Positions 42,322 to 64,000 of a DNA stretch of 64,000 nucleotides are shown piece by piece. Position numbers and translations under genes: made by a program. The stretch is from Microgenomates group bacterium (GTDB lineage: Bacteria > Patescibacteriota > Microgenomatia > UBA1400 > MFAQ01), in contig JBAQNH010000002.1 of NCBI GenBank assembly GCA_049303575.1, positions 83,984 to 147,983 on the forward strand. The letters are read 5' to 3'. Within the stretch, counting starts at the first letter, position 1. Every line of letters starts with the position of its first letter. Under the pieces are notes generated by a model. It was not told the origin of the DNA, did not search any database, and saw only the letters and a program-made list of their open reading frames with translations.

Positions 42322-42354
42322 TCCCAATAAAATGGGCACCTTTTCGGTGCCCAT
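42322..42354 (-). terminator. rho-independent terminator downstream of the 42358..42741 gene
   Basis: ATGGGCACC-TTTTC-GGTGCCCAT hairpin. On the minus strand it is followed by TTTTATT. Confidence 0.65.
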
Positions 42355-42357
42355 AAT

Positions 42358-42741: not shown

Positions 42742-42811
42742 TGTACACCTCCACGAACAGAATGAATTTCAACCCGTATTGTATCAATTAGTGCCCCATA
42801 ACACAATCTTC

Positions 42812-43138
42812 TTACTTCAATCTTCCCAAAACCACATTCAACAATGCCAAAACTACGGCCGCCAGTAAGGCTGCTCCAAAGTTTTTTACTCCAAAGCCCG
42901 GCACAATCTCCCCCATCAGCATAATTAGCCCTGCATTAATCACAAAAGTGAACAAACCTAAAGTCAAAAAATTTACCGGTAGGGTCAACAAAATCAGTAT
43001 TGGCTTTAATACTATCGATAACACCCCCCACACCACTGCCACCACCCCCAATGTCCCCCAGTCCGCTATCATAATTCCCGGAACAATTTTTGCCGTAATA
43101 AAAAACCCGAGAGCATTAACCAACAATTGTATTAACAT
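42812..43138 (-). CDS. 4-TM phage-holin-family (PF04020-like) membrane protein
   Basis: 108 aa and four TM helices. N-terminal LVNALGFFITAKIVPGI pattern is typical of the family. Confidence 0.5.
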   Translation of the reverse strand: MLIQLLVNALGFFITAKIVPGIMIADWGTLGVVAVVWGVLSIVLKPILILLTLPVNFLTLGLFTFVINAGLIMLMGEIVPGFGVKNFGAALLAAVVLALLNVVLGRLK

Positions 43139-43216
43139 ACCCCATCTTTATTCAAATTAACTCCGTTGTCAAATTGTACCCTTGTCTATCTCCTTGTTCT
43201 TTGCCATAATGGCGCC

Positions 43217-43819
43217 ATGACCGAAAGTTTGAAAGGTATCTCTGGCTCCATGTTTGCCGGGAAAACGGAAACCCTCCTCCGAGAAATCTCTCGGGCAGAA
43301 ATTAGCAAGAAAAAGGTTCAGGTTTTTAAACCAATTGTCGATGATCGCTGGGGCGAAAAAGACAAAGTTCGATCTCATTCCGGCGGAGAACACGATGCTT
43401 GTGCCGTAAAAAACGCCCTTGATATTCTTGCGTGTCTAGACGCAGATACTCAAGTCGTCGCCATTGAAGAAATCCAGTTTTTTGACCCGGAAATAATCAA
43501 CGTCGTTCGGGCTCTTCTGGAAGCTGATATCCGCGTCATCTTCGCCGGACTTTCTCAGGACTTCAGGGGAGAACCTTTCGGCTCCATGCCTACCCTCCTA
43601 GCCCTTTGTGACGAAATTGAAAAACCTACCGCTATTTGTACTGAAGAAGTCGACGGAAAAATCTGTGGTGCCAACGCTTCCAAAACCCAACGACTCATCA
43701 ATGGCCAGCCCGCAAACTTTAACGATCCCATTGTTCTCATCGGCGACCAAGACGAAGGCTATCAAGCTCGTTGTCCCAAACACCACAAAGTTCCGGGTAA
43801 ACCTCTTCCTAAAATCTAA
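43217..43819 (+). CDS. tdk: thymidine kinase
   Basis: P-loop ISGSMFAGKTETLLREI. C-terminal zinc ribbon (C..C...C..H). The track ORF begins at an upstream TTG; ATG (MTESLKG) is preferred. Confidence 0.85.
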   Translation: MTESLKGISGSMFAGKTETLLREISRAEISKKKVQVFKPIVDDRWGEKDKVRSHSGGEHDACAVKNALDILACLDADTQVVAIEEIQFFDPEIINVVRALLEADIRVIFAGLSQDFRGEPFGSMPTLLALCDEIEKPTAICTEEVDGKICGANASKTQRLINGQPANFNDPIVLIGDQDEGYQARCPKHHKVPGKPLPKI

Positions 43820-43820
43820 A

Positions 43821-44936
43821 CTAATCTAAGTAATCCTGCAGCTTTCTTCTTCTTGAAGGATGTCGTAGCTTCCTCAGGGCTTTGCTCTCTATCTGTCTTA
43901 TACGCTCGCGAGTCACTCCAAATACCTTACCCACCTCTTCGAGAGTTAAAGGTTTACTGCCGTCAAGACCAAAGCGCATTCGCAGCACCTTACTTTCACG
44001 CTCGGTAAGGCTTCCTAGAGCCTCTTCCAGGTTCTCATGCATCAGCTGTTTACTAGTTGATTCATAGGGAGTTGCCTGTCGTTCATCGGGGATAAAGTCC
44101 CCCAGCATTGAGTCTTCATCATCCCCTATTGGTGTTTCCAAAGAAGTCGTCTTTTGGGCAATTTTCAAAATTTCACGCACTTTTTCCGGTGTCGTCTCCA
44201 ACTCTGCGGCCACCTCTTCATCTGTAGGCTCACGACCCAAATCTTGCATTAGTTTTCTCTGAGTACGAATTAGTTTGTTTATCGTCTCCACCATGTGTAC
44301 CGGAATACGAATTGTTCTGGCCTGATCGGCAATCGCCCGGGTAATCGCCTGACGGATCCACCAAGTAGCATACGTTGAGAACTTAAATCCCTTTGTCCAG
44401 TCATACTTCTCAACCGCTCGGATTAGTCCCTTATTACCCTCTTGAATCAGATCCAAAAAACTCATTCCTCTACCCATGTACTTCTTGGCAATAGAAACTA
44501 CCAAACGTAAATTACTCTTAGTTAGCATGTCTTTCGCATTTCGATCTCCTCGTTCCACTTTCTGAGCTAGAGAAATTTCCTGTTCACGTTTCAATAGCGG
44601 AATGCGTCCAATTTCTTTAAGATACATGCGCACTGGATCATTTACCTCTGTGTCTTCCAGTTTTGAAAGTGACTCTAACTCTTTTTCCAGATCACTGGTC
44701 GCCTCAATTATCTCGGCATCCTGCCCGGACAGCACACTCTCAAACACATCAATATCTTCTTTAAATAACAACTCGTAGAGATAGTCCAGATCATTTACTT
44801 CATCTTCAGCTGTAGGAAAATACACCAAGATATCATCTTGGGTTACAAAGCCTTGTTCTTGCCCAAGTTCTAGAATTGCTTTGATTTTTTGTTGAATGGA
44901 AAGAGTCCCTTTATTTTCAGCCATAATAGTCTCCAT
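43821..44936 (-). CDS. rpoD: RNA polymerase primary sigma factor (sigma-70/RpoD)
   Basis: Region 2 ([27 protein letters not shown]) and region 4 HTH ([29 protein letters not shown]). Confidence 0.9.
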
Positions 44937-44961
44937 TAGCTTACCACAAAAGAGCTTAAAA

Positions 44962-46728
44962 TCAACCCAAAAACGCTATTACCCTACTTTCTTTCTTGTT
45001 TAGCTCATTGAGCTTCGCAAATATCTCATCTTCTTTTTCTTCATTCCTTTCCCTCCTTGCCAGGTTCATCTCCTCCATTAGCTCTTTTTTTCGGTCACGA
45101 ATTATTTCTCTCAACAGTTGTACCGCTGCTTCTTCAACTTCTTTTTGGCCAGGCACCTCTTCGGAGTCTTCCGCCATGTATGCTTCTCCCGCTACTTCCC
45201 GTAGTTCTTCAGGAATATTTTTTACCAGTTCATCTACCGGCTGATTTTCTCTATTCTCCAGTAACCAGGTAATCAGTTTTCCCTCCGCTCCGGCAACGCT
45301 CACTCCCCCAAACCAGGGCGACACTATCTTTACCGCTTCCTGTTTCAAAATCAAAAGGCCAATCAATCGCCGAGCTAGTTTTACAATTCGTTTTTCCTCT
45401 ACCTTACCCCTTTCTTCACTTGTATTTTTTATCTCCTGCTTTCCGAAAATCTTTTTTTCTATCTCTCCCATCACTCCCTTTGTGGCCACCCCAATTTTGT
45501 CGGCCAATCGCTTTGCCCAAACTTCTCTTACCACATCATTTTCAATTTTTGCCAGAAATGGCACTACCTCTTCCGTAATTTTTTTAACGCCGTCTACTTT
45601 TGTCACGTCAAATTTTTTAAAAGCGCCGTCCATTATAAATTCATAAACATCGACTGATTTTTCCACCAGTTCCTTCCATTTTTCTGGAGACTTTCGGGCT
45701 ATTTCATCTGGATCTTTGCCGCCTTCTATCTGTACAACTTTTATGTTCATACCTCTCTTTTCTGCAAGCTCCACCGACCTTTTTATAGCCACGCTTCCTG
45801 CTTCATCCGCATCCATGGAAAGGTAAATTTTGTCTGCTAGTCTGGCCAGTAATTCTATCTGGTCTTCCGTCAGGGCCGTCCCCCCTACTGCCACTGTTTC
45901 TGTAATTCCAGCGGCATATGAGCTGATACAATCCATCTGTCCCTCCACCAAAACGACTCTTTTCTTTTCTCTAATTGCTTTTTTTGCTTGGAAAAAACCA
46001 TACAACATTCTGCTCTTGTGATACAGTGCCGTTTCCGGAGAGTTCATGTATTTTGGTTCATCATCTTTGGCCAATGTCGGTAAAATTCTTCCCGTAAAAC
46101 CAACCACCTTACCTCCGGCATCCTGCAAAGGAAACATTATTCTCCCTCGAAATTTATCGAAAACTCCCCCTTCTTTTGATTTTCGGCTCACCAGTCCCAC
46201 TTTTTCCAGCAACTCTTCGCTATATCCTTTTTTCTTAATCAAATAATTAACCACTCCTTCCCAACTCTGCATCGCAAATCCAAGATTAAAGGTCTCCATC
46301 AGTTTTTCGTTTATTTTCCGACTCCCAAGATACTCTCTGGCCGCCGCTCCGGCATTCCCCTCCATCAGTAGCCAGTGATAGTATCGTGCCGCCAGGTCCA
46401 TTACTTCCAACATCTTTGCTCGTTCGTCACTATCATCTCTCCTTCTGCTTACTAGCTTCACCCCGGCTTTTTCGGCTAGTCTTTCCAAAGCTTCCCGAAA
46501 CTCAATTCCCTCTATTTCCATCAGAAACTTTATTACATCCCCTCCGGCACCACACCCAAAACATTTATACAGCCCCATCTCTTCATTCACCATGAACGAT
46601 GGTGTCTTCTCTGAGTGAAACGGGCACAATCCTTTGTGGTGTCTTCCCATCTTCTTCAACACGACATAAGATCCCACCACGCCGACAATATCAGTTTTTC
46701 TCTTTATTTCCTCAACTTGATCTTCCAT
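44962..46728 (-). CDS. dnaG: DNA primase DnaG
   Basis: Zinc finger [26 protein letters not shown] ([11 protein letters not shown]). Classic dnaG-rpoD order. Confidence 0.9.
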
Positions 46729-46805
46729 CTTTGGGTTTTATTGGTATCAACCTGGCTCAATTGTACCCTAAAAAGGGACTCGCTTCATTCCCAAAACAAC
46801 TCTCG

Positions 46806-47042
46806 TTATTTCTTTTTTTTCTTCGTCGGTGTTGTCAGTCTGATATCTTTGTTTGTAATCAAATAAATGATCGGTAAAATTCCCAGACTATTTACCAAGA
46901 GTAAGGCGACAAACCAAACTTTCTGGTCTCTCTGAGCACTTTTGAAAAGAGTTACTCCTTTCAAAATCAAATCCGACAACACCAAAATCACTACCAACGG
47001 CGCCATACCTCCATATACAGGCATAAAGAATAAATTGTTCAT
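46806..47042 (-). CDS. small hypothetical membrane protein
   Basis: 78 aa. Two TM helices. Confidence 0.3.
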   Translation of the reverse strand: MNNLFFMPVYGGMAPLVVILVLSDLILKGVTLFKSAQRDQKVWFVALLLVNSLGILPIIYLITNKDIRLTTPTKKKKK

Positions 47043-47095
47043 AACTTAATCTTACACATTTTTTTCAACTTTTTCTTGTTTCCCCTATTTATCTC

Positions 47096-47473
47096 TTACA
47101 CAGGCAGGTACTTCTTTACAATCTTCGGAACTTCCTGAATGTCCACGTTTGCTTTCACAATGTAGTCCTTCGCTCCCAACTTCTTTCCTTCAGAGATACT
47201 CGTCTCTTGTTCAAAGTTGGTCAAAATGACAACAGGAATATCCTTCGTTTCTGGGTTTTGACGTATCACTTTCAAGACCTCAAAACCATTCTTAATTGGT
47301 AATAACAGATCGAGAAGTATCAGATCCGGAATTTCTCGCTGGATCATCTTCTCTGCTTCCTCTCCATCTGTCGCCAAACTTAATTCATAACCCTCGTTTT
47401 GAAGGATAAGAGACAGGGCGTTGGCGAGCACCGTGTCATCCTCCACGATCATCACTCTCTTCTTTTCTTCCAT
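47096..47473 (-). CDS. single-domain response regulator (CheY-like receiver only)
   Basis: MIVEDD..DLILLDLLLP..conserved K receiver signature. No output domain. Confidence 0.8.
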   Translation of the reverse strand: MEEKKRVMIVEDDTVLANALSLILQNEGYELSLATDGEEAEKMIQREIPDLILLDLLLPIKNGFEVLKVIRQNPETKDIPVVILTNFEQETSISEGKKLGAKDYIVKANVDIQEVPKIVKKYLPV

Positions 47474-49922
47474 TTTTTTGTTTAATTGGTAACTCTACAA
47501 AGAAGGTCGTTCCTAATTTTTCCTTAGACTCAAACCAAATCTTTCCTCCGTGGCTCTCCACCATACTTTTGGCCAAATAAAGTCCCAATCCTGATCCTGG
47601 AATTGTTTTTGCCACGTTATCCGCTCGAAAAAACTTATCAAATACTTTACTTTGTTGTTTCAATGGTACCCCCAACCCATGATCTCTCACATAGATCTTC
47701 ACCTTTCCCAAACCCAGCTCTGCCCCAACTTCAATTTTACTTCCTTCAGGTGAATATCTGACTGCATTATCAAACAAATTGCCGAAGACCTGGACCATTT
47801 GTGTCACGTCCGCGTCAATTTCCAAGTCCTCAGAAATAAGCTCCATTCCCTCGATGGTAATCTTCTTGTTCAAAAAGAGCCTTCCCTGTTCGTCAATCGA
47901 TCGCTGGAGCAAGTCCTTAACCGGGTAACTCGACACCTCTTTTACGATCTTTCCGCTATCGGCTTTTGACGTGGCCATCAGGTCATTCACCAAATCTATC
48001 ATTCGATTATTACTTTCACCAATTTTTTCAATATATTTCTGAATCTTCTCAATCGACATCTTTGGTGCATTTTGGTCCAATAGTTCCACAAACCACTTAA
48101 TCCCGGTTAGCGGAGTTCGGAGTTGATGGCTAGCCAAAGATATAAAATCGACTCTCATCTGTTCTAGCGCCTTTTCTTTTGTTACATCTCGCAAAACCCA
48201 CACCGTTCCCACTAGTTTCAAATTTTCATCAACAATAGGAGACGCCACTCCATCAACCGATACCGAAGTCCCGCTTTTGTTTCTTACTACTAAAGTATCT
48301 ACTGGCTTTGCTTGTTGTTTTTTTTCAAACACCGTCTCAATCAAATCGACTGGTTTTTTGCCTGTAGTTTCATAAGACAACGATAGTACTTCTTCAATAT
48401 TTTTTCCCATCATCTCCCTTTCGCCCAGACCAAACAATATCTCCATTGCTTTATTCGCCAAAATAATTTTTTTCTTGTCGTCGGTTACAAAAACGGCGTC
48501 ACCCATATCATGTAAGATTGCCTCCAGTTTATGTTTTTCCGTCAAAATATTCATATTGGCTCTCGCCAGTTCAATCTCCGCCCGTTTTCGACCCTCAATG
48601 TTTATTCCCAAAACCAACAAGTACTCCTTTTCGCCGATCATTAAAGTCGTTATTGAACACAAACAGGTAATTATTTCTCCGTTCTTTTTTCTAAACCGAT
48701 ACTCCTTATCTCGAATAATTTTATTTTTCTTCAACTCTTCAATCATTTTGTCCCTTTCTGTATTCTCAGCCCAAATGTTCAGACTCAAAACAGACTTTCC
48801 AATAACCTCCTCCTTTTTATAACCAAGAGACTCCGTAAAGGCGTTATTAACATCCAGATATATTCCTTCTTTAAGTGACGAAATCGTAATTATTTGAGGA
48901 CCGTTTTTAAATACTTGCGAAAACTTTTCTTCCGACTCTATTAATTTTTTTTCAGTCCTTTCTCTCTCTGTAATGTCACGCACGAAAGCCTGCAATCTTC
49001 CATCAGACAATCTCCTTGCCTTGGCTTCTATTATCAACACCTGTCCGTTTTTTCTTAACATCTTTCTCTTAAAATTCAAGTCCGTCCCTAATGCAAGTTG
49101 ATCCAGTCTTTTTTTTGCAGCCTCTCTTTCCTCAGACAAGTATGTGTCAATAATATTCACCTTTTTAATTTCTTCATCGGTATAACCCAACATTTCTTTC
49201 ATCTTTGAATTCACCAATAAAAAATGGCCCCTGGTATCCACTACAAAAATACCATCTGCTGCTTGTTCAATCAAAACTCGGTATTTTTCTTCACTCTCGG
49301 CCAGTTCTTCTACCACCAGATCCCGTTTCAGTCTATTGGACATCATTACCCCCAACATCAAAGTTGCCAAAGGATTAACGGTAATCACTGGAAACCAAAT
49401 AGTCAAAAAGGCTTCCCCCATAATTTCCTTGGGTAACAATACTACCAAAGCCAAATCAACTATGTGTATCACCAAGCCAAAAAGATACATCTCTATCCAA
49501 AGTAACTGGTGTAATTTTTTTCCTCTGAGATACCTCCATATCAGCCCAAAAGCACCGGCCATAATGATCTCCGATACTCCTGCTAAAGTTCCCACTCCTC
49601 CAATAGAAATTCTATATAAAACTGTCACAATAATCGCAATCAGTGTTGGAATCCAACCAAAAAATAATCCGGAAATCCCTAACAAAACAGTTCTTGTATC
49701 GAAAATCAGTCCTGGAATTAGTTCCCACTTCGTTGACATTACCGCCAACCCAACTCCTCCCAGAATTATTCCTACCATCACTTGCCAAATATAAGAGTTG
49801 CTCTTTTTTTGTCTTGTTGTTAACAACTCAAAAATCAAAACCATCGTCAAAAGAAGCGACGCGTTATAAACAAGACCCATAAAAAATTCACTATTCATTT
49901 CTCCTCCCCCCAGGCAGGTCAA
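47436..49922 (-). CDS. sensor histidine kinase with an N-terminal polytopic membrane domain and multiple PAS domains
   Basis: Six or more TM helices, three PAS-like repeats, HisKA (LASHQLRTPLTGI) and HATPase (GSGLGLYLAKSMVESHGGKIW). Confidence 0.85.
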   Translation of the reverse strand: MTCLGGGEMNSEFFMGLVYNASLLLTMVLIFELLTTRQKKSNSYIWQVMVGIILGGVGLAVMSTKWELIPGLIFDTRTVLLGISGLFFGWIPTLIAIIVTVLYRISIGGVGTLAGVSEIIMAGAFGLIWRYLRGKKLHQLLWIEMYLFGLVIHIVDLALVVLLPKEIMGEAFLTIWFPVITVNPLATLMLGVMMSNRLKRDLVVEELAESEEKYRVLIEQAADGIFVVDTRGHFLLVNSKMKEMLGYTDEEIKKVNIIDTYLSEEREAAKKRLDQLALGTDLNFKRKMLRKNGQVLIIEAKARRLSDGRLQAFVRDITERERTEKKLIESEEKFSQVFKNGPQIITISSLKEGIYLDVNNAFTESLGYKKEEVIGKSVLSLNIWAENTERDKMIEELKKNKIIRDKEYRFRKKNGEIITCLCSITTLMIGEKEYLLVLGINIEGRKRAEIELARANMNILTEKHKLEAILHDMGDAVFVTDDKKKIILANKAMEILFGLGEREMMGKNIEEVLSLSYETTGKKPVDLIETVFEKKQQAKPVDTLVVRNKSGTSVSVDGVASPIVDENLKLVGTVWVLRDVTKEKALEQMRVDFISLASHQLRTPLTGIKWFVELLDQNAPKMSIEKIQKYIEKIGESNNRMIDLVNDLMATSKADSGKIVKEVSSYPVKDLLQRSIDEQGRLFLNKKITIEGMELISEDLEIDADVTQMVQVFGNLFDNAVRYSPEGSKIEVGAELGLGKVKIYVRDHGLGVPLKQQSKVFDKFFRADNVAKTIPGSGLGLYLAKSMVESHGGKIWFESKEKLGTTFFVELPIKQKNGRKEESDDRGG

Positions 49923-49977
49923 TTACCATGTAACAATTCTAACACAGCAGCTTCAACAAGTTCAACGATATTAAGAT

Positions 49978-50009
49978 GCGGAAGGGATGTAACAAAGTCC
50001 GAACCTTTT
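49978..50009. repeat. copy A of a roughly 30-nt imperfect direct repeat (GCGGA.G.G..AAC.AAGTCCGAACCTTT)
   Basis: Core AAGTCCGAACCTTT at 49995..50008. The partner copy is at 50956..50985. Confidence 0.6.
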
Positions 50010-52560: not shown

Positions 52561-52733
52561 AACTTCATTGTTTCTAAATAATGTTTATAATTTTACTCTT
52601 TTGATAAGTAATAATTAGTGAGATTTGATATACAACCAATGACTTTTGTGTTTCCATAATACTGGTTACACTCTTAAACCGAGTTCCCCATCACTGCAAA
52701 GTCGTGATAATATGCTCTGTTGAGGGTAACCAG

Positions 52734-52817
52734 CGGAGACGGTGGGATTCGAACCCACGGGACTTTTTCAAGTCATGGTTTAGCGAACCATTGTCTTAAC
52801 CACTGGACTACGTCTCC
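52734..52817 (-). tRNA. tRNA-Ser (anticodon GCT), class II with a long variable arm
   Basis: Acceptor GGAGACG/CGTCTCC, anticodon stem ATGGT/ACCAT with loop TCGCTAA, variable hairpin GACTT..AAGTC, T-arm TGGG-TTCGAAT-CCCA, discriminator G. Coordinates +/-2. Confidence 0.8.
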
Positions 52818-52833: not shown

Positions 52834-53838
52834 TCATCGTAACTTGGAAATTAGCCTGTAGTTTGAACTCCCAACTACCTTGAAATATCGGATAATCTCA
52901 TCCTTTTTATATAGCCACACTTTATTATTGGACTGATACTTTGGAGAAAAACCTAAAGTAGTTAGTGTTTCGAAGACAAATGTTAATAACGGAGTTGATA
53001 CGTTTGTGAAGTTTATGGTTAGGTACGAGTATTGTTTTCCGTTTATTGTGTATTTATGTTCAAATAGTCCTCCGTCTGTATCAATAAGCCCTCTAAGACA
53101 CATTGTTGAATAATTGATGTCTCCTGTTATCCACTTTGGAACCGTTATTTGAATTTTTGATTTGTTTCCAAAGGAAATACCATTTTTATTCAAGAACTTA
53201 ACGAGATTAACACCGCTATACTTTAACGAAATTGCATTGGCTTTCTTGTATTTATATAGAGATGGGGAATATTTAAATAATTTTTCTGATAGATCCTTGA
53301 CATACTCCATATATTTATTGTCTAAAATTGAATTAAGGGTGATGGTCAGTTGATATTTTGTTAGTCCTCCATCACCTAAAACAATTCCAAACAACTCGGC
53401 TAATTGTTTTGATTCGTTTGGAAAATTAAAAATATTGGGTACATTGCAACCAATTGAACGATAATAATCTGGATTTTCTTTCCTGTTTTTCTGGGACATT
53501 TCTCCTCCTTTTTTTCGCCCAGATTCATTTCCAGGTGGTCCATATAGTTTATTCCTCTTTAGTGTACCAATAGGTCCATTGATTCTTCCACTCCACCATT
53601 CTTCTCTTTCTTCCAATATTGGTGGAAGGGTAATGCCAGAAATTTTGCTAATTTTTTTCATTGCGTCTCTACTTCCTAAAGTCTTTTCGCTAATCCAATA
53701 CCTGAAGCTTCTTCCTGAGATACCAACAAATTTTGATAGACCATCCGAGTTTAGAGTAAGGATAGCCATAACCTTTTTCAAGTATTTGTTTTGTTCTCCT
53801 CGTTTAAATACCAATCTTGTCATAGCTAATCCTAACAA
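52834..53838 (-). CDS. free-standing double-motif LAGLIDADG homing endonuclease with an N-terminal HTH-like region
   Basis: Two LAGLIDADG motifs, LFGIVLGDGGL and LRGLIDTDGGL. Lies 16 nt upstream of tRNA-Ser(GCT) on the same strand. Confidence 0.75.
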   Translation of the reverse strand: MLGLAMTRLVFKRGEQNKYLKKVMAILTLNSDGLSKFVGISGRSFRYWISEKTLGSRDAMKKISKISGITLPPILEEREEWWSGRINGPIGTLKRNKLYGPPGNESGRKKGGEMSQKNRKENPDYYRSIGCNVPNIFNFPNESKQLAELFGIVLGDGGLTKYQLTITLNSILDNKYMEYVKDLSEKLFKYSPSLYKYKKANAISLKYSGVNLVKFLNKNGISFGNKSKIQITVPKWITGDINYSTMCLRGLIDTDGGLFEHKYTINGKQYSYLTINFTNVSTPLLTFVFETLTTLGFSPKYQSNNKVWLYKKDEIIRYFKVVGSSNYRLISKLR

Positions 53839-53879: not shown

Positions 53880-53895
53880 AATGATAAAATATACA
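53880..53895 (+). promoter_or_regulatory. putative extended -10 promoter (TGATAAAAT) for tRNA-Ser(TGA) and the following tRNA
   Basis: TGnTAAAAT is about 10 nt upstream of the mature 5' end. The same motif recurs before three other tRNA genes. Confidence 0.5.
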
Positions 53896-53900
53896 GGTTC

Positions 53901-53982
53901 GGAGAGTGGGCAGGACGGTAATGCGTTGGTCTTGAAAACCAATGAGCGCAAGCTCTAACAGGTTCGACCCCTGTACTCTCCG
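53901..53982 (+). tRNA. tRNA-Ser (anticodon TGA), class II
   Basis: Acceptor GGAGAGT/ACTCTCC, anticodon stem TTGGT/ACCAA with loop CTTGAAA, variable hairpin GAGC-GCAA-GCTC, T-arm CAGG-TTCGACC-CCTG, discriminator G. Preceded by TAAAAT. Confidence 0.8.
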
Positions 53983-53987
53983 CCTCA

Positions 53988-54072
53988 GGAGGGGTCGCAT
54001 AGTGGTCGAGTGCTCCGGTTTACTAAACCGGCGTATCGCAAGATACCGCGGGTTCGAATCCCGCCCCCTCCG
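53988..54072 (+). tRNA. class II (Ser-type) tRNA with an apparent anticodon ACT (unusual A34); possibly a tRNA-Ser variant or pseudogene
   Basis: Acceptor GGAGGGG/CCCCTCC, 3-bp D-stem GCA/TGC as in tRNA-Ser, anticodon stem CCGGT/ACCGG with loop TTACTAA, variable hairpin GTATC-GCAA-GATAC, T-arm GCGGG-TTCGAAT-CCCGC, discriminator G. Confidence 0.55.
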
Positions 54073-54094
54073 CATTTAAATAGTTACACAACTA

Positions 54095-54487
54095 TTATCT
54101 AATGTCTGGGTTTTTGCAATATTCTGTCTCAATCATTAGTGACTCATCCGTAAATCGTATCGCTATCCTTTCCTGTCTCAACTCGACAGCCAAGTTTCCA
54201 ATGAACTCTATAAATCTTTCTTTAAATCGATCTTTTTCCTCTGGAAATCTGGGGTAGACTGAGGACTCAATCAAAATAGCTGGCTCGCTATACTCATTTT
54301 TACCGGAAACCACTATCCCGCTTGGAGTCAAAGTACCAGAAAAGGTAAAATCGTTAACTTTTGAAGCTGATATTTTTATTGCTTTTTTTACTTCGTCTAA
54401 AGAGAAAGTTTTGTTTGAGTAACCCACCTTCAAACCCAAAATAACCCTTGCCTCAAAAGTCTCAATGTTTAAGCCAGTTTTATACAT
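54095..54487 (-). CDS. hypothetical protein
   Basis: ORF of 130 aa. No motif. Confidence 0.4.
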   Translation of the reverse strand: MYKTGLNIETFEARVILGLKVGYSNKTFSLDEVKKAIKISASKVNDFTFSGTLTPSGIVVSGKNEYSEPAILIESSVYPRFPEEKDRFKERFIEFIGNLAVELRQERIAIRFTDESLMIETEYCKNPDIR

Positions 54488-54561
54488 TTACTAGATTTTA
54501 CCTTAATTGTTGTCGAAACCCATTACTCCCGCAACCCTCACCTTTTTGTTACACTTATCAC

Positions 54562-55329
54562 ATGGAGGAACCTCAGCACCCAAAGACACCCACACTACCC
54601 CTCACTACCGTGGTCATCAACGAACTGGTAGATACCAAAGAAAAAGTTTCCACCCCTCCCAAAAAGGTCAGAACTCTCCCTTGGATTATTCTCGGTCTAA
54701 TAATTTCTTTAATTCTTGCTGGTATCGGCACCTTAGTCTGGAAATGGGCTCAATCTGCCAAACAACCCGATCTGGTTATCAATGCTCCTGATACTTCAAA
54801 CCCTTCAATTACTCCCCTTCCAACACCGATCGGTGAAACCACCACACTTGTTCCCCAAAGTCTTCTTTTTGAAGACAAGGCATATCGGAACGAACTCGCC
54901 AGATTTCAAATTAATGTTCCGCTCGGTTGGCAGATTGACGACTCGGGGGAGTCGGGATCGATTCTTGTCATCGTCGACCCTAAAGCTACCATCGTAAGTG
55001 GTAATGCCCTCCTCACTTTTGTGAACGTTTCCACTGGCAAAGCTTCCGGAGAAACACTTGAAAGCTATGTTAAGTCTGCCCGAGACGGTCTCATAAAAAA
55101 CTTTAATCAATATGTCATCAAAGAAGACAAAGACATGACTATTAGTGGTAATACCTACCACCTCATTGGTGGTAGCTATCAAATACAAGGTATTACGATG
55201 AAAAATCGCAATCTTCTTCTCGTTTTTAATGATCGTGGTTACGCCATCTCCGCCACGGCACCAGAATCTGTTTGGTCAAAAAAAGAACTTCTTCTCAATG
55301 CCACCATTTTTTCCTTCAAAAACTTCTAA
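54562..55329 (+). CDS. hypothetical membrane-anchored (type II) protein; start set at MEEPQHP
   Basis: TM helix LPWIILGLIISLILAGIGTLVW followed by a Pro/Thr linker and a soluble domain. The upstream part of the track ORF overlaps the minus-strand gene. Confidence 0.4.
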   Translation: MEEPQHPKTPTLPLTTVVINELVDTKEKVSTPPKKVRTLPWIILGLIISLILAGIGTLVWKWAQSAKQPDLVINAPDTSNPSITPLPTPIGETTTLVPQSLLFEDKAYRNELARFQINVPLGWQIDDSGESGSILVIVDPKATIVSGNALLTFVNVSTGKASGETLESYVKSARDGLIKNFNQYVIKEDKDMTISGNTYHLIGGSYQIQGITMKNRNLLLVFNDRGYAISATAPESVWSKKELLLNATIFSFKNF

Positions 55330-55358
55330 GGTAACAGTTCGTTGTGTTAAGATGAAAT

Positions 55359-55859
55359 GTGCCCAATATCGACCCCTTAAATTCTGAAGAAGTCATCCTT
55401 TTGGAATGGACTTCCTATGAAAGACCTCAAAAAAAATGGAGCAAAGAGTTCTACAGTTCCGTTCTCGTTATGGCTTTTCTCGCTAGCGTTATCCTTTATT
55501 TCATCGAAGGCATTATGCCCGTACTGGTAATTGGTGCGATGGTCTTTATGCTTTGGGCCATGAGTCGTACTGAACCTCGCTTAGAAAAATATGCCCTCTC
55601 CACCTGGGGACTTAAAACCAAAGAGAGAACTTATCGTTTTGAAAATATGAGTCAATTTTGGTTAGAAAATAAATGGGGAGGCAGACTTATGCGAATTAAC
55701 CTCATTGGTGCTCCCTGGCATCTCGTCATCGTCGTCAACTCGGAATCCGAAGGCAAACTGAAAAAACTCATGCTTCAATACGTCGCCTATCAAGAGCCAC
55801 CCATTACCTGGAGCGACCGTTTGGTTAAGTGGTTTGGTGACAAAGTCCCACTGGAGTAA
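55359..55859 (+). CDS. hypothetical membrane protein
   Basis: Two TM helices. No motif. Confidence 0.4.
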   Translation: MPNIDPLNSEEVILLEWTSYERPQKKWSKEFYSSVLVMAFLASVILYFIEGIMPVLVIGAMVFMLWAMSRTEPRLEKYALSTWGLKTKERTYRFENMSQFWLENKWGGRLMRINLIGAPWHLVIVVNSESEGKLKKLMLQYVAYQEPPITWSDRLVKWFGDKVPLE

Positions 55860-55974
55860 ATTTGATTTTCTTTTAAACTAAAGATAACAGTCTTGCCCTA
55901 AAAGAAGAAATCATGTATTACGCGCACAACACAGCAGACCATTTACTAAACAAAGTGAACGAAAAAGACCCGTA

Positions 55975-55990
55975 GATGGTAAAATATGCT
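55975..55990 (+). promoter_or_regulatory. putative extended -10 promoter (TGGTAAAAT) for tRNA-Arg(GCG) and tRNA-Ser(CGA)
   Basis: Conserved GGTAAAATAT box 11 nt upstream of the tRNA 5' end. Confidence 0.5.
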
Positions 55991-55996
55991 TTGTTT

Positions 55997-56070
55997 GCGC
56001 TCGTAGCTCAGTTGGATAGAGCACTAGGTTGCGGACCTAGGGGTCGCAGGTTCAAATCCTGCCGGGCGCA
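55997..56070 (+). tRNA. tRNA-Arg (anticodon GCG)
   Basis: Acceptor GCGCTCG/CGGGCGC (one T-G wobble), D-stem GCTC/GAGC, anticodon stem CTAGG/CCTAG with loop TTGCGGA, T-arm GCAGG-TTCAAAT-CCTGC, discriminator A. Preceded by TGGTAAAAT. Confidence 0.7.
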
Positions 56071-56076
56071 CTTTTG

Positions 56077-56158
56077 GGAGGGTGGGCAGGACGGTAATGC
56101 GTTGGTTTCGAAAACCAATGAGCGCAAGCTCTAACAGGTTCGACCCCTGTACCCTCCG
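56077..56158 (+). tRNA. tRNA-Ser (anticodon CGA), class II; near-duplicate of the TGA isoacceptor
   Basis: Identical to tRNA-Ser(TGA) except for the anticodon loop (TTCGAAA) and a compensated acceptor pair (GGAGGGT/ACCCTCC). Confidence 0.8.
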
Positions 56159-56188
56159 CATTTTATATATTTCTCCTTGTGCCACTAA

Positions 56189-58277: not shown

Positions 58278-58395
58278 AAAACAATTCTAACCGAGTAAAT
58301 ACAAAAAATCTCCCCGTTAGGAGAGATTTTTGTATATTGTGGAGATGGGGCGCCACTTCTTGAACCATTTCTGTTATCCCTCATTTCTTCGGTAA

Positions 58396-58716
58396 ATGAT
58401 AACTGGCACTTGGAAAATGACAACCGTTGGCTTTTGCTTCCACCCGAAAAAAGTGATGGTCTTTCTTCGTATAATAGTTATAGTGACTATAAATACTAAA
58501 CCCAAGCAATTACCCAAACCGAAAGTGGCTGTTCCTGTTCCTCAGCCACGAATTAGGATACTTGATGGCGGATATAACTCGGGCATTTCGGGCTTTGTCA
58601 GCTCCCTTCAATCAGTCAATCTCAATGCTCCCGAAGCCTCACAAAACGCCCACTCAATAAGCGACAACCGAGGTGGAAGAATAGAGCTTGGCTTGGAGAA
58701 TTACATTAAGAAGTGA
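58396..58716 (+). CDS. hypothetical protein (first gene of the putative integrated element)
   Basis: ORF only. Hydrophobic N-terminus. Confidence 0.25.
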   Translation: MITGTWKMTTVGFCFHPKKVMVFLRIIVIVTINTKPKQLPKPKVAVPVPQPRIRILDGGYNSGISGFVSSLQSVNLNAPEASQNAHSISDNRGGRIELGLENYIKK

Positions 58717-58757
58717 GACCTTGAACCTTTCAGGATGAAGGTCAAGTAAGTAATTAA

Positions 58758-59192
58758 ATGGACGAAGAAACCGACATAATTTTCCGAAAAGTGGAGCCTT
58801 TCTTGAAGTGCGGTCTGAGCCTCCACAAAGCCTGTCTACAGGCTCAAATACCCAAAAGCACGGCATATGACCTATACAAGAATAACAAGTCATTCTCGGA
58901 AAGAATAGACACCAGTAGAAATTATTACTCAGTGCTTGTAACTAGCATTGTCACGAAGGAGCTTGAGAGGATAAGCTCAAAGCAAGACCGAGGTAAGAAA
59001 TTACAACCATTGGAAGTCAGGCTCATTCAATGGATAGCCACAAACAGCCGTTCTCTCAAGGGTGAGTATGGCGACGAGCCTGAGAAATTGGATGAAGAGA
59101 TAAAGCAAGACGACACCATTACATTACTTCAAAAAATAATTAACGACTGTTCTCGGAAAGACAAGGATACACTGGAAGAGCAACCCTCTTGA
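58758..59192 (+). CDS. hypothetical protein, possible HTH (terminase-small-subunit-like) N-terminus
   Basis: GLSLHKACLQAQIPKSTAYDLY resembles a helix-turn-helix. Acidic C-terminus. Confidence 0.3.
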   Translation: MDEETDIIFRKVEPFLKCGLSLHKACLQAQIPKSTAYDLYKNNKSFSERIDTSRNYYSVLVTSIVTKELERISSKQDRGKKLQPLEVRLIQWIATNSRSLKGEYGDEPEKLDEEIKQDDTITLLQKIINDCSRKDKDTLEEQPS

Positions 59193-59311
59193 ACGGTATT
59201 TATAATCATTATAAGTTGTCCTCTTTGGGTTGAGTTTCCTTTCTGCTTCAACCATCACATTCCAACTCGGATTAGCCAACTTAATACTTAGGTAAATTAA
59301 CTCCTACAAGG

Positions 59312-59905
59312 CTAATCATTAAGGTGTTGCATAGCGTAGTCTGCTTCTGCCGCTGTAAATTTACCGCCATACTGTGAAACGAGTTGGTCACGAACAGCTG
59401 CTGGTGACAGGTTCATAGTATCTTGGTAAGTTTTTGCCTGTGAGAGAGCATTTGCATTCCAATTTGCTTTTACATTATCTATTGCATATTGTGCTGCTTT
59501 TGGCGAAAATTTCCCGCCATATTGTGAAACAAGTTGGTCATAGACACCCTGCTTAGACAAATGCATTGAGTTGGCATATGTTGTTGCTTGGGCAAGAGCA
59601 GATTTGTATTCCGCTGGCACATTTGTGCTTGGTGCTGTTGGTGCAATCGGAGTGGTTTTTGCGGAAACTGTCACACTGGGAGTTGGTTGAGTAGTATCGG
59701 TATCAGTAGTGACGGTCTCGTTACTCTCGGTTGTTTTACTTCCCTTACCTCCACTTGCAGAACCAATCATACCCAAAATAAATATAGCCAAAATAACCGT
59801 GAGTATCGGATGTCTTGCAAACCAAATCCTTTGGTCTGACTGACAATAAGGACACTTCTTGGCTTTATTATCTATCTCTTTCTGACAAGACTTACATTTT
59901 TTCAT
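59312..59905 (-). CDS. Ltp-family (PF07553-like) surface protein with an N-terminal zinc ribbon and TM anchor; putative superinfection-exclusion protein
   Basis: CKSCQ..CPYC zinc ribbon, one TM helix and a Thr-rich linker. Two tandem repeats: QATTYANSMHLSKQGVYDQLVSQYGGKFSPKAAQYAIDNV and QAKTYQDTMNLSPAAVRDQLVSQYGGKFTAAEADYAMQHL. Confidence 0.55.
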   Translation of the reverse strand: MKKCKSCQKEIDNKAKKCPYCQSDQRIWFARHPILTVILAIFILGMIGSASGGKGSKTTESNETVTTDTDTTQPTPSVTVSAKTTPIAPTAPSTNVPAEYKSALAQATTYANSMHLSKQGVYDQLVSQYGGKFSPKAAQYAIDNVKANWNANALSQAKTYQDTMNLSPAAVRDQLVSQYGGKFTAAEADYAMQHLND

Positions 59906-60019
59906 TATTCTTGTTTGTTAATAATTTTTTAATACTCCTTGTCACCTACCTACTTCAAATTGTAATCCATTCCACAGTCTAAAAACAACAATGCAGTTCG
60001 GGGATGTAAAATCAGGGCA

Positions 60020-61561
60020 ATGGAATACTACGACCTTGATGTCACAAAACTAAAGTATGTCCTCTACCTTCGCAAGTCCACCGACGACGCTCAAAGGCAA
60101 GTCAGGTCTATTGGCGACCAAGAGGCAGAATGCTTTGACCTCCAAAGACGGCTCGGACTAAATATCGTCAAAACCATAAAGGAAACAAAGTCGGCAAAGT
60201 CCCCTAACAAGCGTCCACAATTCCGAGAAATGCTTGATGGAATAAAAATGGGCAAGTATGACGCCATTCTTGCTTGGAACCCCGATAGGTTGGCAAGAAA
60301 TATGCTTGAGGGTGGAGAAATAATTTATTTGGTGGACGAAAACATTATCAAAGACCTAAAGTTCGTTACTCACCCATTCACACCCGACCCAAACGGCAAA
60401 ATGCTTCTCGGGTTGGCTTTTGTCCTCTCCAAGCAATACTCGGATGACCTCTCTCAAAAGATTTCCCGAGGAGTAAAAAGAAGCTTCAGTGAAGGCAAGA
60501 TTGGCACCTACAAACATGGTTACAAGCGTGATGATGAAGGGTTCCAAGTTCCCGACGGAAAGAAGTTTGAGCTCATTAAGGAGGCTTGGGAGCTTAGAGC
60601 CGAAGGTCGTTCCCTTGAAGAAATAGCCTCCATCATAAACGACAAGGGATATGAGAGAAAAATAAAAAGAACGGGAGTAATTATGAAGGCAGACGCCAAA
60701 CTATTGAGTAAGCTTTTCCGAGACCCATTTTATTTTGGAACTTTGATACAAGCGGGTCAAACAATAAACCTTCTCCAATTTGGCTTTATTCCTGCCACCA
60801 CAAAAGAAGTTTACGAACATATCCAGTTGCTCTCATCAAACCGACTCCGACCATTCAATGTCAGGCGAATGACATTCTTCCCTCTTAAGGCAATACTGAG
60901 GTGTTCATTTTGCGGAAAGAATATGGTGGTGGCTCCATCAACAAGCCGAGGAGGAGGAAAGCTTTTGTATTGTCGTTGCGATACCAAAGGATGTCCGAGG
61001 ATAAAGAAATCGCTCCGAATGAAGTTTGTCTTTGATTTTATCTACGACTTTTTGGATAACAATCTAAAAATCACCGAGAAGGAATACCAAAAATATCTTG
61101 ATGAAACCGACGCTCTCAATGTAGAAGCGACAAGTAATACCTACCTTCAAATCCATACTCTTGAGGGACAGGTAAAAGCTATCACCCAAGAAATCAAGGA
61201 AAGCTCACTTGGTCTCGTCAAAATAAACTCCAAATCTCCAGCCTTCAATATAGTAAACGATAGGATTTCAAGCCTAGACAATGAAAAGTCAGGCTTGGAA
61301 GAGAAACTACGAGACCTCAGGAGCACTCTAAAAAGCCCCGAGAGTCAGAGGTTGGGTATGGATGAGTTCTTGAACCTGTGTAAAAATGCGGGTGCTATCG
61401 CAAGAAGTGCCACCGAAGTTCAAAAAGATACAATTTGCCGATATGTTTTCTTGAACCTATCTGTGGATGAGGAAAAAGTAGTGGCATATCAACTAAAAGA
61501 GCCGTTCAACACATTGGTCAAACGGCTCTTTATCCAAGAAGGTGGAGACGGAGGGAATTGA
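60020..61561 (+). mobile_element. large serine recombinase (serine integrase) CDS
   Basis: Resolvase-type catalytic N-terminus (VLYLRKSTDDAQRQ, nucleophilic Ser), recombinase domain, zinc-ribbon (CSFCGKN..CRC) and coiled-coil. The 3' end overlaps the tmRNA 3' end. Confidence 0.85.
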
Positions 61562-61935
61562 ACCCTCGTCTGAAATAATAAATCTACAATTTCTACAAGC
61601 TTAGTTTGCCGTTTTTCCATAAAGCTTCAGGCAAACAAGAACACTTTATGGTCGACTTAGAATAAGTTAGTCTCCAAGCCTAAATCACGCCTTGAAGCAT
61701 TCAATCCGGTGTTTTTTCGCCTTAAAGGTACCCCGGGATCCGATATTCTCTAGAGCGTCTCGAACTCGAGTTTAGGCAAAAGCGTAAACGGGAGCGAAAG
61801 ATTTGGCTTCACTTGAGGTGAAACCAAGTAACTTGTCTTCTTTATTGACAGTTGTATTTTGGTCTTTTTTACTCCTTTTACCAAAGGAGGCTTGCAGTTG
61901 TAAACGTACTAGTCCATCGATTCCGGTCGTCCCCA
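61541..61935 (-). ncRNA. ssrA: tmRNA (ssrA), about 395 nt
   Basis: 5' GGGGACGACCGGAATCGATGG matches the tmRNA 5' consensus (GGGGnuGAuucuGGAUUCGAcGG). Acceptor GGGGACG pairs with 3' CGTCTCC, giving a G3:U wobble, with discriminator A plus CC. T-arm GAGGG-TTCAATT-CCCTC. Candidate tag ORF GCC..TAA encodes AKSFAPVYAFA. smpB lies immediately upstream. Confidence 0.75.
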
Positions 61936-61983: not shown

Positions 61984-62226
61984 TTAGGACCTTAATGTTC
62001 TAAAATACTCAATTTTCTCAGTCAAAGTGACTCCCATCATCTGAGCACGAGACGCAGCCATTACCACACCAGCCAAAAATAAATCAAATTCGTCATCATC
62101 CATCGCGGATACTTTAGCTTTTATGCCTTCTTGCCACTTTTTCAGGCTCATTTTCGGCGTAAAATCCTTACTCCATGAATAATTAACGATGCTGGCAGGC
62201 ATTACTTTACTCCAAAATAGGTCCAT
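61984..62226 (-). CDS. small hypothetical protein between smpB and ssrA
   Basis: ORF of 80 aa. No motif. Confidence 0.3.
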   Translation of the reverse strand: MDLFWSKVMPASIVNYSWSKDFTPKMSLKKWQEGIKAKVSAMDDDEFDLFLAGVVMAASRAQMMGVTLTEKIEYFRTLRS

Positions 62227-62236
62227 TTTTACCCTT

Positions 62237-62677
62237 TCAGTTAGTTAGTTTTAAACGTCTCGCAAGACCCAACTGACTTTCACGCTTTTTGAGTATCTCT
62301 CTTTTTTCAAACTTCTTCTTGCCTCGGACTAAAGCGATCTTCACCTTCACGAGACTGCCCTTATTATACAGCGAGATAGGCACGACTGTCAACCCTGCCG
62401 ATCTCATTTTGCTCTGAATCTCGATGATTTCTTTCCTGTGCAGCAACAATTTTCTTCGTTTGTCGGGATCATATTCCTCCGCACTGTCATGCCTGTACTT
62501 GGGAATGCTCAGTCCCAGCACATACGCCCCGTCATTCTCAAAAATGACTCTTGCTCCCAACATCGTTGCTCCTCCGTCACGAACACTTTTCACCTCAGCC
62601 CCACTCAATACAATACCGGACTCAAAATCCTCAATAATCTCATAATCAAATCTGGCTTTTTTATTCTCCACGATCAT
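62237..62677 (-). CDS. smpB: SsrA-binding protein SmpB
   Basis: ARFDYEI..GIVL.GAEVKS..KRRKLLLHRKEI..KGSLVKVKIALVRGKK are canonical SmpB motifs. Confidence 0.9.
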   Translation of the reverse strand: MIVENKKARFDYEIIEDFESGIVLSGAEVKSVRDGGATMLGARVIFENDGAYVLGLSIPKYRHDSAEEYDPDKRRKLLLHRKEIIEIQSKMRSAGLTVVPISLYNKGSLVKVKIALVRGKKKFEKREILKKRESQLGLARRLKLTN

Positions 62678-62697
62678 GGATATATTGTAGCAAGCAA

Positions 62698-63966
62698 TTA
62701 GTTCAAAACTCCTACTGTTCCCTCCGTCAACACCAGCAGAATGGTCCCGTCGTACTCAATGTCTGTTGCTGTCTTCAATTTTTCCGACTTTAACTGTTGT
62801 TCGCAGTTTCCGGTTTCTTTACTACAGACAATTACCACTCCGTTTATCTTGTCTAGTATTGCCAAGCCATTGCCATCCAACTGCACCGCGATTCTCGCCG
62901 TTTTTATCCCTTCCGGCACACCGTTCAAGGAAAACTGTTCTCTGGCTCCTCTCCTAAACTTTTCTACCACTCCCGACTCTCCCAAGACCCATACGTCACT
63001 GTCAATCGCCATATCCACGGGCACTACACTTATCGACTGACCCTGTGCTAACCACCGAACTCTGTCTCCATAGCCATCACTTATTGCTCCGTATTTATAA
63101 ATCTCTTTGTTTCCACTATCCAGTACATAAAGATTTGCTCCAAATCTGCCGATTGTCGTTGCTTTGCTCACTGCCATATCAAAAACAATTCCTCCCGTCT
63201 CTTTCCCGTTTACACTCACTCCCTTGGGACTCAATATCAATACTCTACTGCCATCACTGGTTGCATCCAACCACTCAAGACCCTCACCTTTTCCGGCAAC
63301 TACCTTGATATCCTTGGTCGCTGTTGCCGCCGAAACTACTGTTCCCAACTTACTGTCCGTCACTAATACACTTCCGGACTTTATTAAACTCATTCTGTCC
63401 CCCACAAATCCGGGTCGAACTAATTGAATGTTTACCATCTCCGCAAACTGGCTTTCTTTTTCTCCAGAAGTTATCGTCCACGCGTTATTAAGTCGTCCTT
63501 CCAAAGCTGCCACCTCATCCCTGTACTTTCCTTTTACAAACTCTGCTTTTTGTACATCAAAAGTTTTTCTTACGTCTTCAATCAATTTTCTTGCTCCAGA
63601 TGGATTAATCTTTACCAAATCCTGAGCTTCCTGAATGTTGTTCACTATTGGTTCGGAAAATTCTTTCCATTTTTTTGCCTCTCTATCGGCTTGAATTTTT
63701 ATCGACCCAGTCACCAAACTTACTGCTAATAAGATTAGAAATAAAACTCCCATTAAAACAGCCCACTTCTTCCTTTTTTGTCCTCCTTCGCGATCTATCC
63801 GAAGATCTTCCCTCCCTGATGGTTTAATTTTTCTCCACCAATTTAATAGTTTGTCTTTTGCTTTAACCGGCCCAATTAACTCTTCTCCGGCCAAATCTTC
63901 CTCTCTCTCCGGCCTGTAAAAAGTTTCCCTTTCTGCTTCTGGCTTTTCAATTATCTCCTCAACCAC
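62698..63966 (-). CDS. hypothetical membrane-anchored protein with a large extracytoplasmic beta-rich domain
   Basis: Acidic N-terminus, one TM helix (WAVLMGVLFLILLAVSLV) and a 300-aa C-terminal domain. No motif. Confidence 0.4.
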   Translation of the reverse strand: MVEEIIEKPEAERETFYRPEREEDLAGEELIGPVKAKDKLLNWWRKIKPSGREDLRIDREGGQKRKKWAVLMGVLFLILLAVSLVTGSIKIQADREAKKWKEFSEPIVNNIQEAQDLVKINPSGARKLIEDVRKTFDVQKAEFVKGKYRDEVAALEGRLNNAWTITSGEKESQFAEMVNIQLVRPGFVGDRMSLIKSGSVLVTDSKLGTVVSAATATKDIKVVAGKGEGLEWLDATSDGSRVLILSPKGVSVNGKETGGIVFDMAVSKATTIGRFGANLYVLDSGNKEIYKYGAISDGYGDRVRWLAQGQSISVVPVDMAIDSDVWVLGESGVVEKFRRGAREQFSLNGVPEGIKTARIAVQLDGNGLAILDKINGVVIVCSKETGNCEQQLKSEKLKTATDIEYDGTILLVLTEGTVGVLN

Positions 63967-64000
63967 AATTTCACTTTCCTCAGTTTCTTCAGTTTTTTCC

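Follow-up and report, generated by a model that had tools for sequence, protein, structure and literature searches.

Can a bacterial tRNA-Ser gene with the anticodon ACU, which places an A at position 34 in the split Ser/Arg codon box, encode a working tRNA, and which codons would such a tRNA read? tRNAs with A34 for split boxes, the Ser/Arg box being named explicitly, have been stated to be universally missing, also in phages (PMC8007984), and their absence is called an open paradox in a 2026 study (bioRxiv 10.64898/2026.05.15.725136). In that study, Raval et al. (2026) list 695 ANN genes other than ACG from GtRNAdb, with every ANN type represented but only the four-fold-box Leu(AAG) and Thr(AGU) fixed in whole genera (bioRxiv 10.64898/2026.05.15.725136). 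The initial annotation of this locus started from the premise that A34 is essentially restricted to tRNA-Arg(ACG), which agrees with both sources, and put forward three options: a novel decoding arrangement, a GCU or TGA tRNA copy that had mutated recently, or a duplicate without function. Our literature search found no report of tRNA-Ser(ACU) in bacteria or CPR, nor any on TadA in CPR.

The tRNA-Ser(ACU) gene and its genomic setting

The gene was found in a stretch of 64,000 nucleotides, referred to here as the window (Table 1), and its sequence is GGAGGGG-TC-GCA-TAGTGGTCGAG-TGC-T-CCGGT-TTACTAA-ACCGG-C-GTATC-GCAA-GATAC-C-GCGGG-TTCGAAT-CCCGC-CCCCTCC-G. ARAGORN calls it tRNA-Ser(act), giving its span as 53988..54073, and together with Rfam it bears out the assignment as a class II tRNA with ACT at positions 34-36. 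The score against the Rfam tRNA model (RF00005) is 55.8 bits (E = 2.6e-9, gathering score 29) and is comparable to those of the other Ser tRNAs of the window, four in number (45-57 bits). The acceptor stem is a perfect helix of 7 bp (GGAGGGG/CCCCTCC) in the sequence and in the ARAGORN fold, followed by T8 and C9 and by a D stem of 3 bp (GCA/TGC), the D loop having A14, G18G19 and the 20a/20b insertion typical for bacterial Ser tRNAs. The anticodon arm consists of a 5-bp stem (CCGGT/ACCGG) and a 7-nt loop, where T33 precedes and A37 follows the anticodon, and the long variable arm forms a hairpin with a 5-bp stem, GTATC-GCAA-GATAC, kept in the relatives with compensatory change. In this way, the 3-bp D stem, the variable hairpin and the symmetrical anticodon arm described initially are all found on the sequence. 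Also, the T arm is canonical (GCGGG-TTCGAAT-CCCGC), the acceptor 3' strand is followed by the discriminator G73 (G at 54072), and CCA is not encoded in the gene. Serine identity is set by the variable arm and G73 and not by the anticodon, class II Leu and Tyr tRNAs having A73 in contrast to the G73 of Ser tRNAs.

A sequencing error at the anticodon was also considered. From a separate assembly, a Logan contig (SRR28062879) matches 53947..56120 of the window at 100% identity, A34 included; this contig may share its sample with the window assembly, so the stronger case against an error, and the one on which it is rejected, is the recurrence of ACT in many other metagenomes.

Regarding the organism, the RpoD of the window is 91-92% identical to those of Candidatus Collierbacteria bacterium GW2011_GWB1_44_6 and GWB1_45_35 (NCBI names), with more distant matches named Microgenomates or Patescibacteria. 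From this placement, the window is assigned to the chromosome of a Candidatus Collierbacteria bacterium (Microgenomates, CPR/Patescibacteria), a member of a group of tiny bacteria from groundwater. The presence of rpoD, dnaG, sufBCDS and PBP1A also indicates a bacterial chromosome, and a phage origin is rejected on these genes and on a megablast of 50-60 kb of the window against GenBank phages, which was without match. Likewise, an origin from Chloroflexota, prompted by the resemblance of the tRNA 5' half to Dehalococcoidia Ser(GCU), is overruled by the RpoD placement. The G+C content is 41% and the GC skew is very strongly negative, being about -0.2 to -0.4 at 1..50000 and 62000..64000 and flattening between 50 and 62 kb, the region of the tRNA cluster and of inserted genes. 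A similar strand disparity has reportedly been described in a paper on a Microgenomates genome.

The tRNA cluster holds every Ser isoacceptor and two CGN Arg tRNAs (Table 1). It includes a second AGY-box gene, an ordinary tRNA-Ser(GCU), the presence of which had been proposed as a check.

Table 1. Features of the tRNA cluster and of the tRNA-Ser(ACU) gene, in window coordinates
Feature	Position	Strand	Basis or remark
tRNA-Ser(GCU)	52733..52817	-	ARAGORN; partner gene, ordinary AGY reader, divergently transcribed
LAGLIDADG ORF	52834..53838	-	free-standing, between Ser(GCU) and Ser(UGA); insertion absent from close relatives
Extended -10-like element TGATAAAAT	53882..53890	+	ends about 10 nt before tRNA-Ser(UGA) begins; putative promoter of the UGA and ACU genes
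tRNA-Ser(UGA)	53901..53984	+	ARAGORN; 3 nt upstream of tRNA-Ser(ACU)
tRNA-Ser(ACU)	53988..54072	+	class II, G73 discriminator; ARAGORN, Rfam, ten distinct orthologous sequences
Anticodon loop TTACTAA	54020..54026	+	invariant in 10/10 clade sequences, including three lineages found without anticodon constraint
Anticodon ACT (A34 C35 U36)	54022..54024	+	sequence and ARAGORN
tRNA-Arg(GCG)	55997..56071	+	ARAGORN and Rfam; marker of inosine-free CGN decoding in the lineage
tRNA-Ser(CGA)	56077..56159	+	ARAGORN
tRNA-Arg(CCG)	start 56208	+	ARAGORN
tRNA-Ser(GGA)	start 57088	+	ARAGORN
tmRNA gene	61541..61934	-	annotated together with the tRNA cluster

A generic sigma-70 promoter scan gave nothing above background on the + strand and did not call the TGnTAAAAT element upstream of tRNA-Ser(UGA), and its role as a promoter is therefore proposed from conservation: in the alignment of relatives, TGnTAAAAT is seen at the same place in six lineages (the window, L209, L210, L211, L217 and L232). 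This conserved element fits co-transcription of tRNA-Ser(UGA) and tRNA-Ser(ACU), which are probably expressed together.

The gene had initially been described as part of an array associated with a homing endonuclease. This association is incidental, the LAGLIDADG ORF being an insertion absent from close relatives; in L210/L212, no more than 57 bp separate Ser(GCU) from Ser(UGA). The outgroup L226/L227 encodes a homolog (7007..8020; 40% identity over the full length, E = 5e-88) in another spacer of the cluster, the one from Ser(CGA) to Ser(GGA), and the endonuclease family seems to move within this tRNA cluster. At the other end of the cluster, a large serine recombinase ORF (60020..61561, +) overlaps the tmRNA 3' end by about 20 nt, and the sequence adjoining the tmRNA 3' end in L210 corresponds to 58304..58348 of the window, which suggests an inserted element of about 3.2 kb at approximately 58349..61540. 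Direct repeats bounding this island at the tmRNA were looked for and none was found. As a separate observation, Ser(UGA) and Ser(CGA) have in common an unusual body, GGAGAGT-GG-GCA-GGACGGTAA-TGC..., in which position 8 is G and not U, and score lower in Rfam (48 and 45 bits, respectively); this body is kept in several relatives, the canonical type being present in L216, L223 and L226, and the 37-nt repeat common to both genes breaks short-read assemblies.

Conservation in Collierbacteria and origin from the GCU family

A metagenome scan with the sequence from the D arm to the anticodon arm, ACT being required, gave 8 contigs (L209-L216), all of them with tRNA-Ser(ACU) in the same neighbourhood, that is, with Ser(UGA) adjacent, a separate Ser(GCU), Arg(GCG), Ser(CGA), Arg(CCG), Ser(GGA), and a tmRNA with a related tag, VNKEDKLLGF...YAFA. 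In nucleotide comparisons with the window, the protein-coding flanks of these contigs reach no more than 65-88% identity, so they represent species different from that of the window. A set of 8 contigs selected by ACT cannot tell how many relatives have G at position 34, and further loci were fetched through RpoD homologs or synteny alone, without anticodon constraint. Ser(ACU) was found in three lineages reached through RpoD: L217-219 (RpoD 91% identical, GWB1_45_35 type), L220 (80% identical, on a 710-kb contig) and L232 (88% identical), in each case beside Ser(UGA) and with a separate Ser(GCU). Their anticodon stems are TCAGT/ACTGA in L217-219 and GCGGT/ACCGC in L220 and L232, and their D, T and acceptor stems also differ from those of the window.

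Together, the search gives ten distinct tRNA-Ser(ACU) sequences from independent metagenomes of one clade, with RpoD identities of about 80-100%, all ten having G73. The UGA-ACU tandem is kept in L209, L210/212, L211/215, L213, L217-219 and L232, and all loci of sufficient length also have a separate tRNA-Ser(GCU). Public genomes have contained the gene since the 2015 Rifle data, from which L219 derives (SRR1658462). In the nine sequences that align cleanly, 23 base pairs make up 207 cells, all of which (100%) are paired, and in 7 of the pairs both sides have changed. Covariation is scored at 0.275 as against 0.097 in shuffles, none of the 500 shuffles reaching the former value, and in controls with slid partners there are no double-sided changes and the signal is gone. 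A hand tally that includes the divergent L217 finds 8 of 17 stem positions compensatory. The invariant TTACTAA loop and the compensatory stem changes in the ten sequences argue that the tRNA, anticodon included, is under purifying selection as a working tRNA. A tRNA-Ser isoacceptor with an anticodon thought to be unused is fixed across a clade.

As for the origin of the gene, two sister lineages (L223/224 and L226/227, two contigs each, RpoD 77-79% identical) serve as outgroups. Their cluster is tmRNA-Ser(UGA)-Ser(GCU)-Arg(GCG)-Ser(CGA)-...-Ser(GGA), and ACU is absent from it; the slot directly after Ser(UGA) holds Ser(GCU), and in most Collierbacteria loci ACU stands there. When ACU tRNAs are set aside, the window tRNA is closest to the GCU tRNA of the outgroup, at 80% identity. 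Since GCU occupies this slot in the outgroups and the closest non-ACU relatives are GCU tRNAs, a G34-to-A change in a GCU gene is the most likely origin of the ACU gene, and the simplest history would be a duplicated AGY-box Ser gene of which one copy underwent that change. The likeness to bacterial tRNA-Ser(GCU) extends to the class II body, G73, the 3-bp D stem and the arm CCGGT-TTNCTAA-ACCGG; the two differ in that G34 reads AGC and AGU, whereas A34 would be expected to read AGU only. The arm CCGGT-TTGCTAA-ACCGG, one transition away from the ACU arm, is a common Ser(GCU) arm in many phyla, and in a scan of a genome collection with N at position 34 all of the matches listed (at least 120) have G34, a result that gives no gauge of the frequency of ACU. 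Regarding the suggestion of a recently mutated copy from GCU or TGA, the GCU ancestry holds, but the recent date does not, given ten distinct ACU sequences in a clade whose RpoD identity goes down to about 80%.

The layout of the AGY-box genes is not fixed, L216 having ACU(-) followed by UGA(+) and GCU(+), and L214 an ACU-GCU tandem. Moreover, the tRNA-Ser(ACU) of L217-219 is only about 68% identical to that of the window. On these two grounds, gene conversion or a second independent origin of ACU is also conceivable within the clade.

Reading of the AGY box

In the window, AGT is used 219 times versus 115 for AGC, in reply to the usage check proposed initially, and AGU is the commonest Ser codon. 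However, outgroups without ACU use AGU even more (85% of AGY) than the ACU-bearing window, so codon demand alone does not explain the gain of ACU. The most frequent Arg codon in the window is AGA, with 267 of 627 Arg codons, and would be exposed to misreading if A34 were converted to inosine. The organism of the window does not use Arg(ACG), having Arg(GCG) instead, and related loci totalling 410 kb, with 118 tRNAs, contain 13 Arg(GCG) and 0 Arg(ACG). This replacement of the usual bacterial Arg(ACG) in all related loci is a known CPR trait: Shulgina and Eddy describe CPR bacteria without tRNA-Arg(ACG), GCG, UCG and CCG being used instead (PMC8629427). By tblastn, no TadA homolog was found in the fetched loci, but these 410 kb cover little of each genome, and the negative result is weak evidence.

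With respect to the behavior of such an anticodon on the ribosome, an orthogonal tRNA with ACU in E. coli reads AGU, with AGC below detection (at least 95:5), and carries no inosine (PMC11066159). Engineered ACU tRNAs in E. coli (Schmitt et al. 2024; Raval et al. 2026) have the same anticodon as the gene described here and the orthogonal version is active and AGU-selective, but they are artificial and work in a host containing TadA, whereas the Collierbacteria gene is natural and evolutionarily retained. Split-box ANN tRNAs in E. coli more often lower fitness, and for one of them, Phe-tRNA(AAA), partial modification to inosine was inferred (bioRxiv 10.64898/2026.05.15.725136).

Based on these data, we favor, with a probability of about 0.72, a functional lineage-specific tRNA-Ser, derived from GCU, whose undeaminated A34 would read AGU by Watson-Crick pairing beside the GCU tRNA. 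According to this proposal, one AGY-box gene would have become ACU in a Collierbacteria subclade while a second GCU gene was retained; the ACU gene would be transcribed with tRNA-Ser(UGA) from the conserved candidate extended -10 promoter; and the tRNA would be charged by SerRS through its class II variable arm and G73, a charging predicted in spite of the odd anticodon because SerRS does not read it. Then, an A34:U3 Watson-Crick pair would decode AGU, and the GCU tRNA would serve AGC (and AGU by wobble). A34 would not be deaminated to inosine, since the lineage appears to decode CGN by Arg(GCG)/Arg(CCG) and not through the ACG/TadA system, and inosine would put Ser at AGA (Arg). The sequence data establish the gene and its fold, the conservation and covariation, the descent from the GCU family, the retention of the GCU partner and the codon usage, whereas we infer expression, serylation, the unmodified A34 and AGU-only decoding, AGU-specific decoding by undeaminated A34 being the best-supported mechanism. 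Of the options raised initially, the novel decoding arrangement is the one left, in the specific form of a second AGY-box Ser tRNA with A34 beside a retained GCU tRNA.

Other explanations have to be weighed against this one. It is highly improbable that tRNA-Ser(ACU) is a duplicate of tRNA-Ser(GCU) that mutated recently or is in decay, tolerated thanks to the intact GCU copy. A GCU copy is indeed present wherever the locus is long enough to judge, the ACU arm is a single transition from a common GCU arm, and split-box ANN genes in GtRNAdb are reported as sporadic and always with GNN (bioRxiv 10.64898/2026.05.15.725136). Nonetheless, those sporadic genes, which resemble the present case in their constant GNN partner, are scattered across species, whereas here the gene is clade-wide with covariation: ten distinct sequences keep ACU and TTACTAA, 207/207 cells are paired with stems varying only by compensation, the Rfam score is on par with other Ser tRNAs, and the promoter-like element is conserved in a clade spanning about 80-100% RpoD identity. 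The earlier idea of a non-functional duplicate is rejected on the 100% pairing and on the compensatory change in 7/23 pairs. Even less credence, hardly any, is given to a role as serine donor for a non-ribosomal reaction (e.g., Fem/MurM-type cross-bridge synthesis), the tRNA being kept from translation. Dedicated non-proteinogenic tRNA isoacceptors occur in Gram-positive bacteria, and an odd anticodon would be harmless in such a role; but an irrelevant anticodon would drift and this one is invariant, the elongator features are all canonical (G18G19, T loop TTCGAAT, G-C-rich T-stem pairs), and no Fem-type gene adjoins tRNA-Ser(ACU).

The remaining alternatives accept a working tRNA and concern the state of A34. 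Deamination would give a Ser(ICU) reading AGU, AGC (and AGA), like the tRNA-Arg(ICG) of other bacteria, and almost all known natural bacterial and eukaryotic A34 tRNAs are deaminated (PMC8007984), the split-box Phe-tRNA(AAA) of E. coli being inferred as partly modified too (bioRxiv 10.64898/2026.05.15.725136). Also, the gene has in common with the tRNA-Arg(ACG)/TadA system a genome-encoded A34 and agrees with the TadA substrate at three positions, U33-A34-C35. However, position 36 is T (54024) and not G, so the TadA-type loop U33-A34-C35-G36-A37 is not matched, and in the split Ser/Arg box inosine would miscode, with ICU placing Ser at AGA, which makes up 267 of the 627 Arg codons. Moreover, the clade has only Arg(GCG) and no Arg(ACG), CPR being reported without the latter (PMC8629427), E. 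coli TadA left an ACU-anticodon tRNA unmodified (PMC11066159), and the fetched loci gave no TadA homolog, a weak point. On balance, inosine at this position is very unlikely. A functional tRNA whose A34 carries another, undescribed modification that tunes or restricts pairing to U is unlikely too, if to a lesser degree. In bacteria, the wobble position nearly always carries a modification, a plain A34 is considered unfavourable on the ribosome, and the loop may be strictly invariant because an enzyme recognizes it; against this, there is no candidate enzyme, CPR genomes are reduced, and unmodified ACU is already AGU-selective in E. coli (PMC11066159). We retain, then, the reading of AGU by an undeaminated A34 as the favored explanation.

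The nearest natural parallels to a fixed A34 are the Leu(AAG) and Thr(AGU) tRNAs of Lactobacillales, Leuconostocaceae and Mollicutes, which are also fixed clade-wide, in AT-rich genomes (PMC8007984; bioRxiv 10.64898/2026.05.15.725136). Unlike these, which serve four-fold boxes where misreading is synonymous and where the GNN tRNA has been replaced, the gene described here belongs to a split box and its GNN partner is kept.

Two further features of the tRNA sets were seen. The partner tRNA-Ser(GCU) of the window has C33 (C at 52785; loop TCGCTAA) and not the near-universal U33; this C33 is conserved only in the sublineage of the window (also L210, L212 and L216), the GCU tRNAs of other Collierbacteria having U33, and it could reflect either specialisation or relaxation after ACU appeared. 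Also, a more distant Microgenomates genome (L230, RpoD 73% identical) has a tRNA-Ile(UAU) at 2420..2495 (-), another anticodon listed as generally absent from bacteria.

Viral tRNA-Ser(ACU) and the avoidance of A34

A first scan of viral sequences (IMG/VR) was made with the anticodon arm of the window, any base being allowed at position 34; this base was G in 64 matches, A in 16 and C in 6, two of the C34 cases being called by ARAGORN as ordinary class I Arg(CCU) tRNAs. A second scan, whose pattern retained only TTACTAA, a class II-length gap and GGTTCGAATCC, gave at least 120 matches, and among those listed ARAGORN called tRNA-Ser(act) in 108 of 114 new loci. In sum, tRNA-Ser(ACU) is present in at least 124 loci of uncultured viral contigs (16 in L124-L204 and 108 in L235-L348) with at least 106 distinct sequences, which contradicts the published statement that phages lack this anticodon (PMC8007984). 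At least 30 different anticodon stems, mostly complementary, surround the loop TTACTAA in this set, and the median G+C is 37% among the matches listed. The array partners are Thr(UGU), Asn(GUU), Gln(UUG), Glu(UUC), Arg(UCU), Lys(UUU), Leu(UAA) and Ile(UAU), and Ser(GCU) stands alongside ACU in only 1 of the 108 second-scan loci among the matches listed and in 0 of the 16 first-scan loci.

The phage tRNAs resemble those of Collierbacteria in the class II body, the TTACTAA loop and the compensating stems, but they are at most 82% identical to them and are usually the sole AGY-box Ser tRNA of their array. This low identity suggests that the viral and Collierbacteria ACU tRNAs are probably of independent origin; a recent transfer from phage, for which the best Collierbacteria-viral match would again be the one of 82%, is unsupported. 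In GenBank phages, three representative queries found only Ser tRNAs of 74-81% identity and no close relatives, the one match whose anticodon was checked, the homolog in S-PM2, being annotated GCT.

A broader proposal would be that Collierbacteria and, independently, many uncultured phages decode a split box with A34 that is unmodified or bears an undescribed non-inosine modification, ACU reading AGU and GCU, with C33 in the sublineage of the window, reading AGC. We regard this extended scheme as doubtful. If true, it would be a natural exception to the rule of no A34 in split boxes and possibly a first step to separate meanings for AGU and AGC. Deamination-driven miscoding, superwobble misreading and ribosomal dislike of A34 are candidate reasons for the avoidance of A34, for which a clade-wide tRNA-Ser(ACU) in a lineage apparently without the inosine system offers a natural test case, the many independent phage versions being likewise a natural system. 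For annotation, Ser(ACU) calls should not be dismissed as pseudogenes, and the gene bears on codon-usage and tRNA-adaptation models of CPR bacteria and phages.

Finally, single ARAGORN calls of other A34 tRNAs were obtained in the viral loci, being Phe(AAA) (two), His(AUG), Tyr(AUA), Ser(AGA), Gly(ACC) (two) and Thr(AGU). Two IMG/VR sequences of 136 and 306 kb (L197/L198), with strong PHROG matches (phrog_35576, 765 bits), carry Arg(GCG) next to Ser(ACU), Ala(UGC) and Thr(UGU), and may be phages whose hosts decode without inosine.
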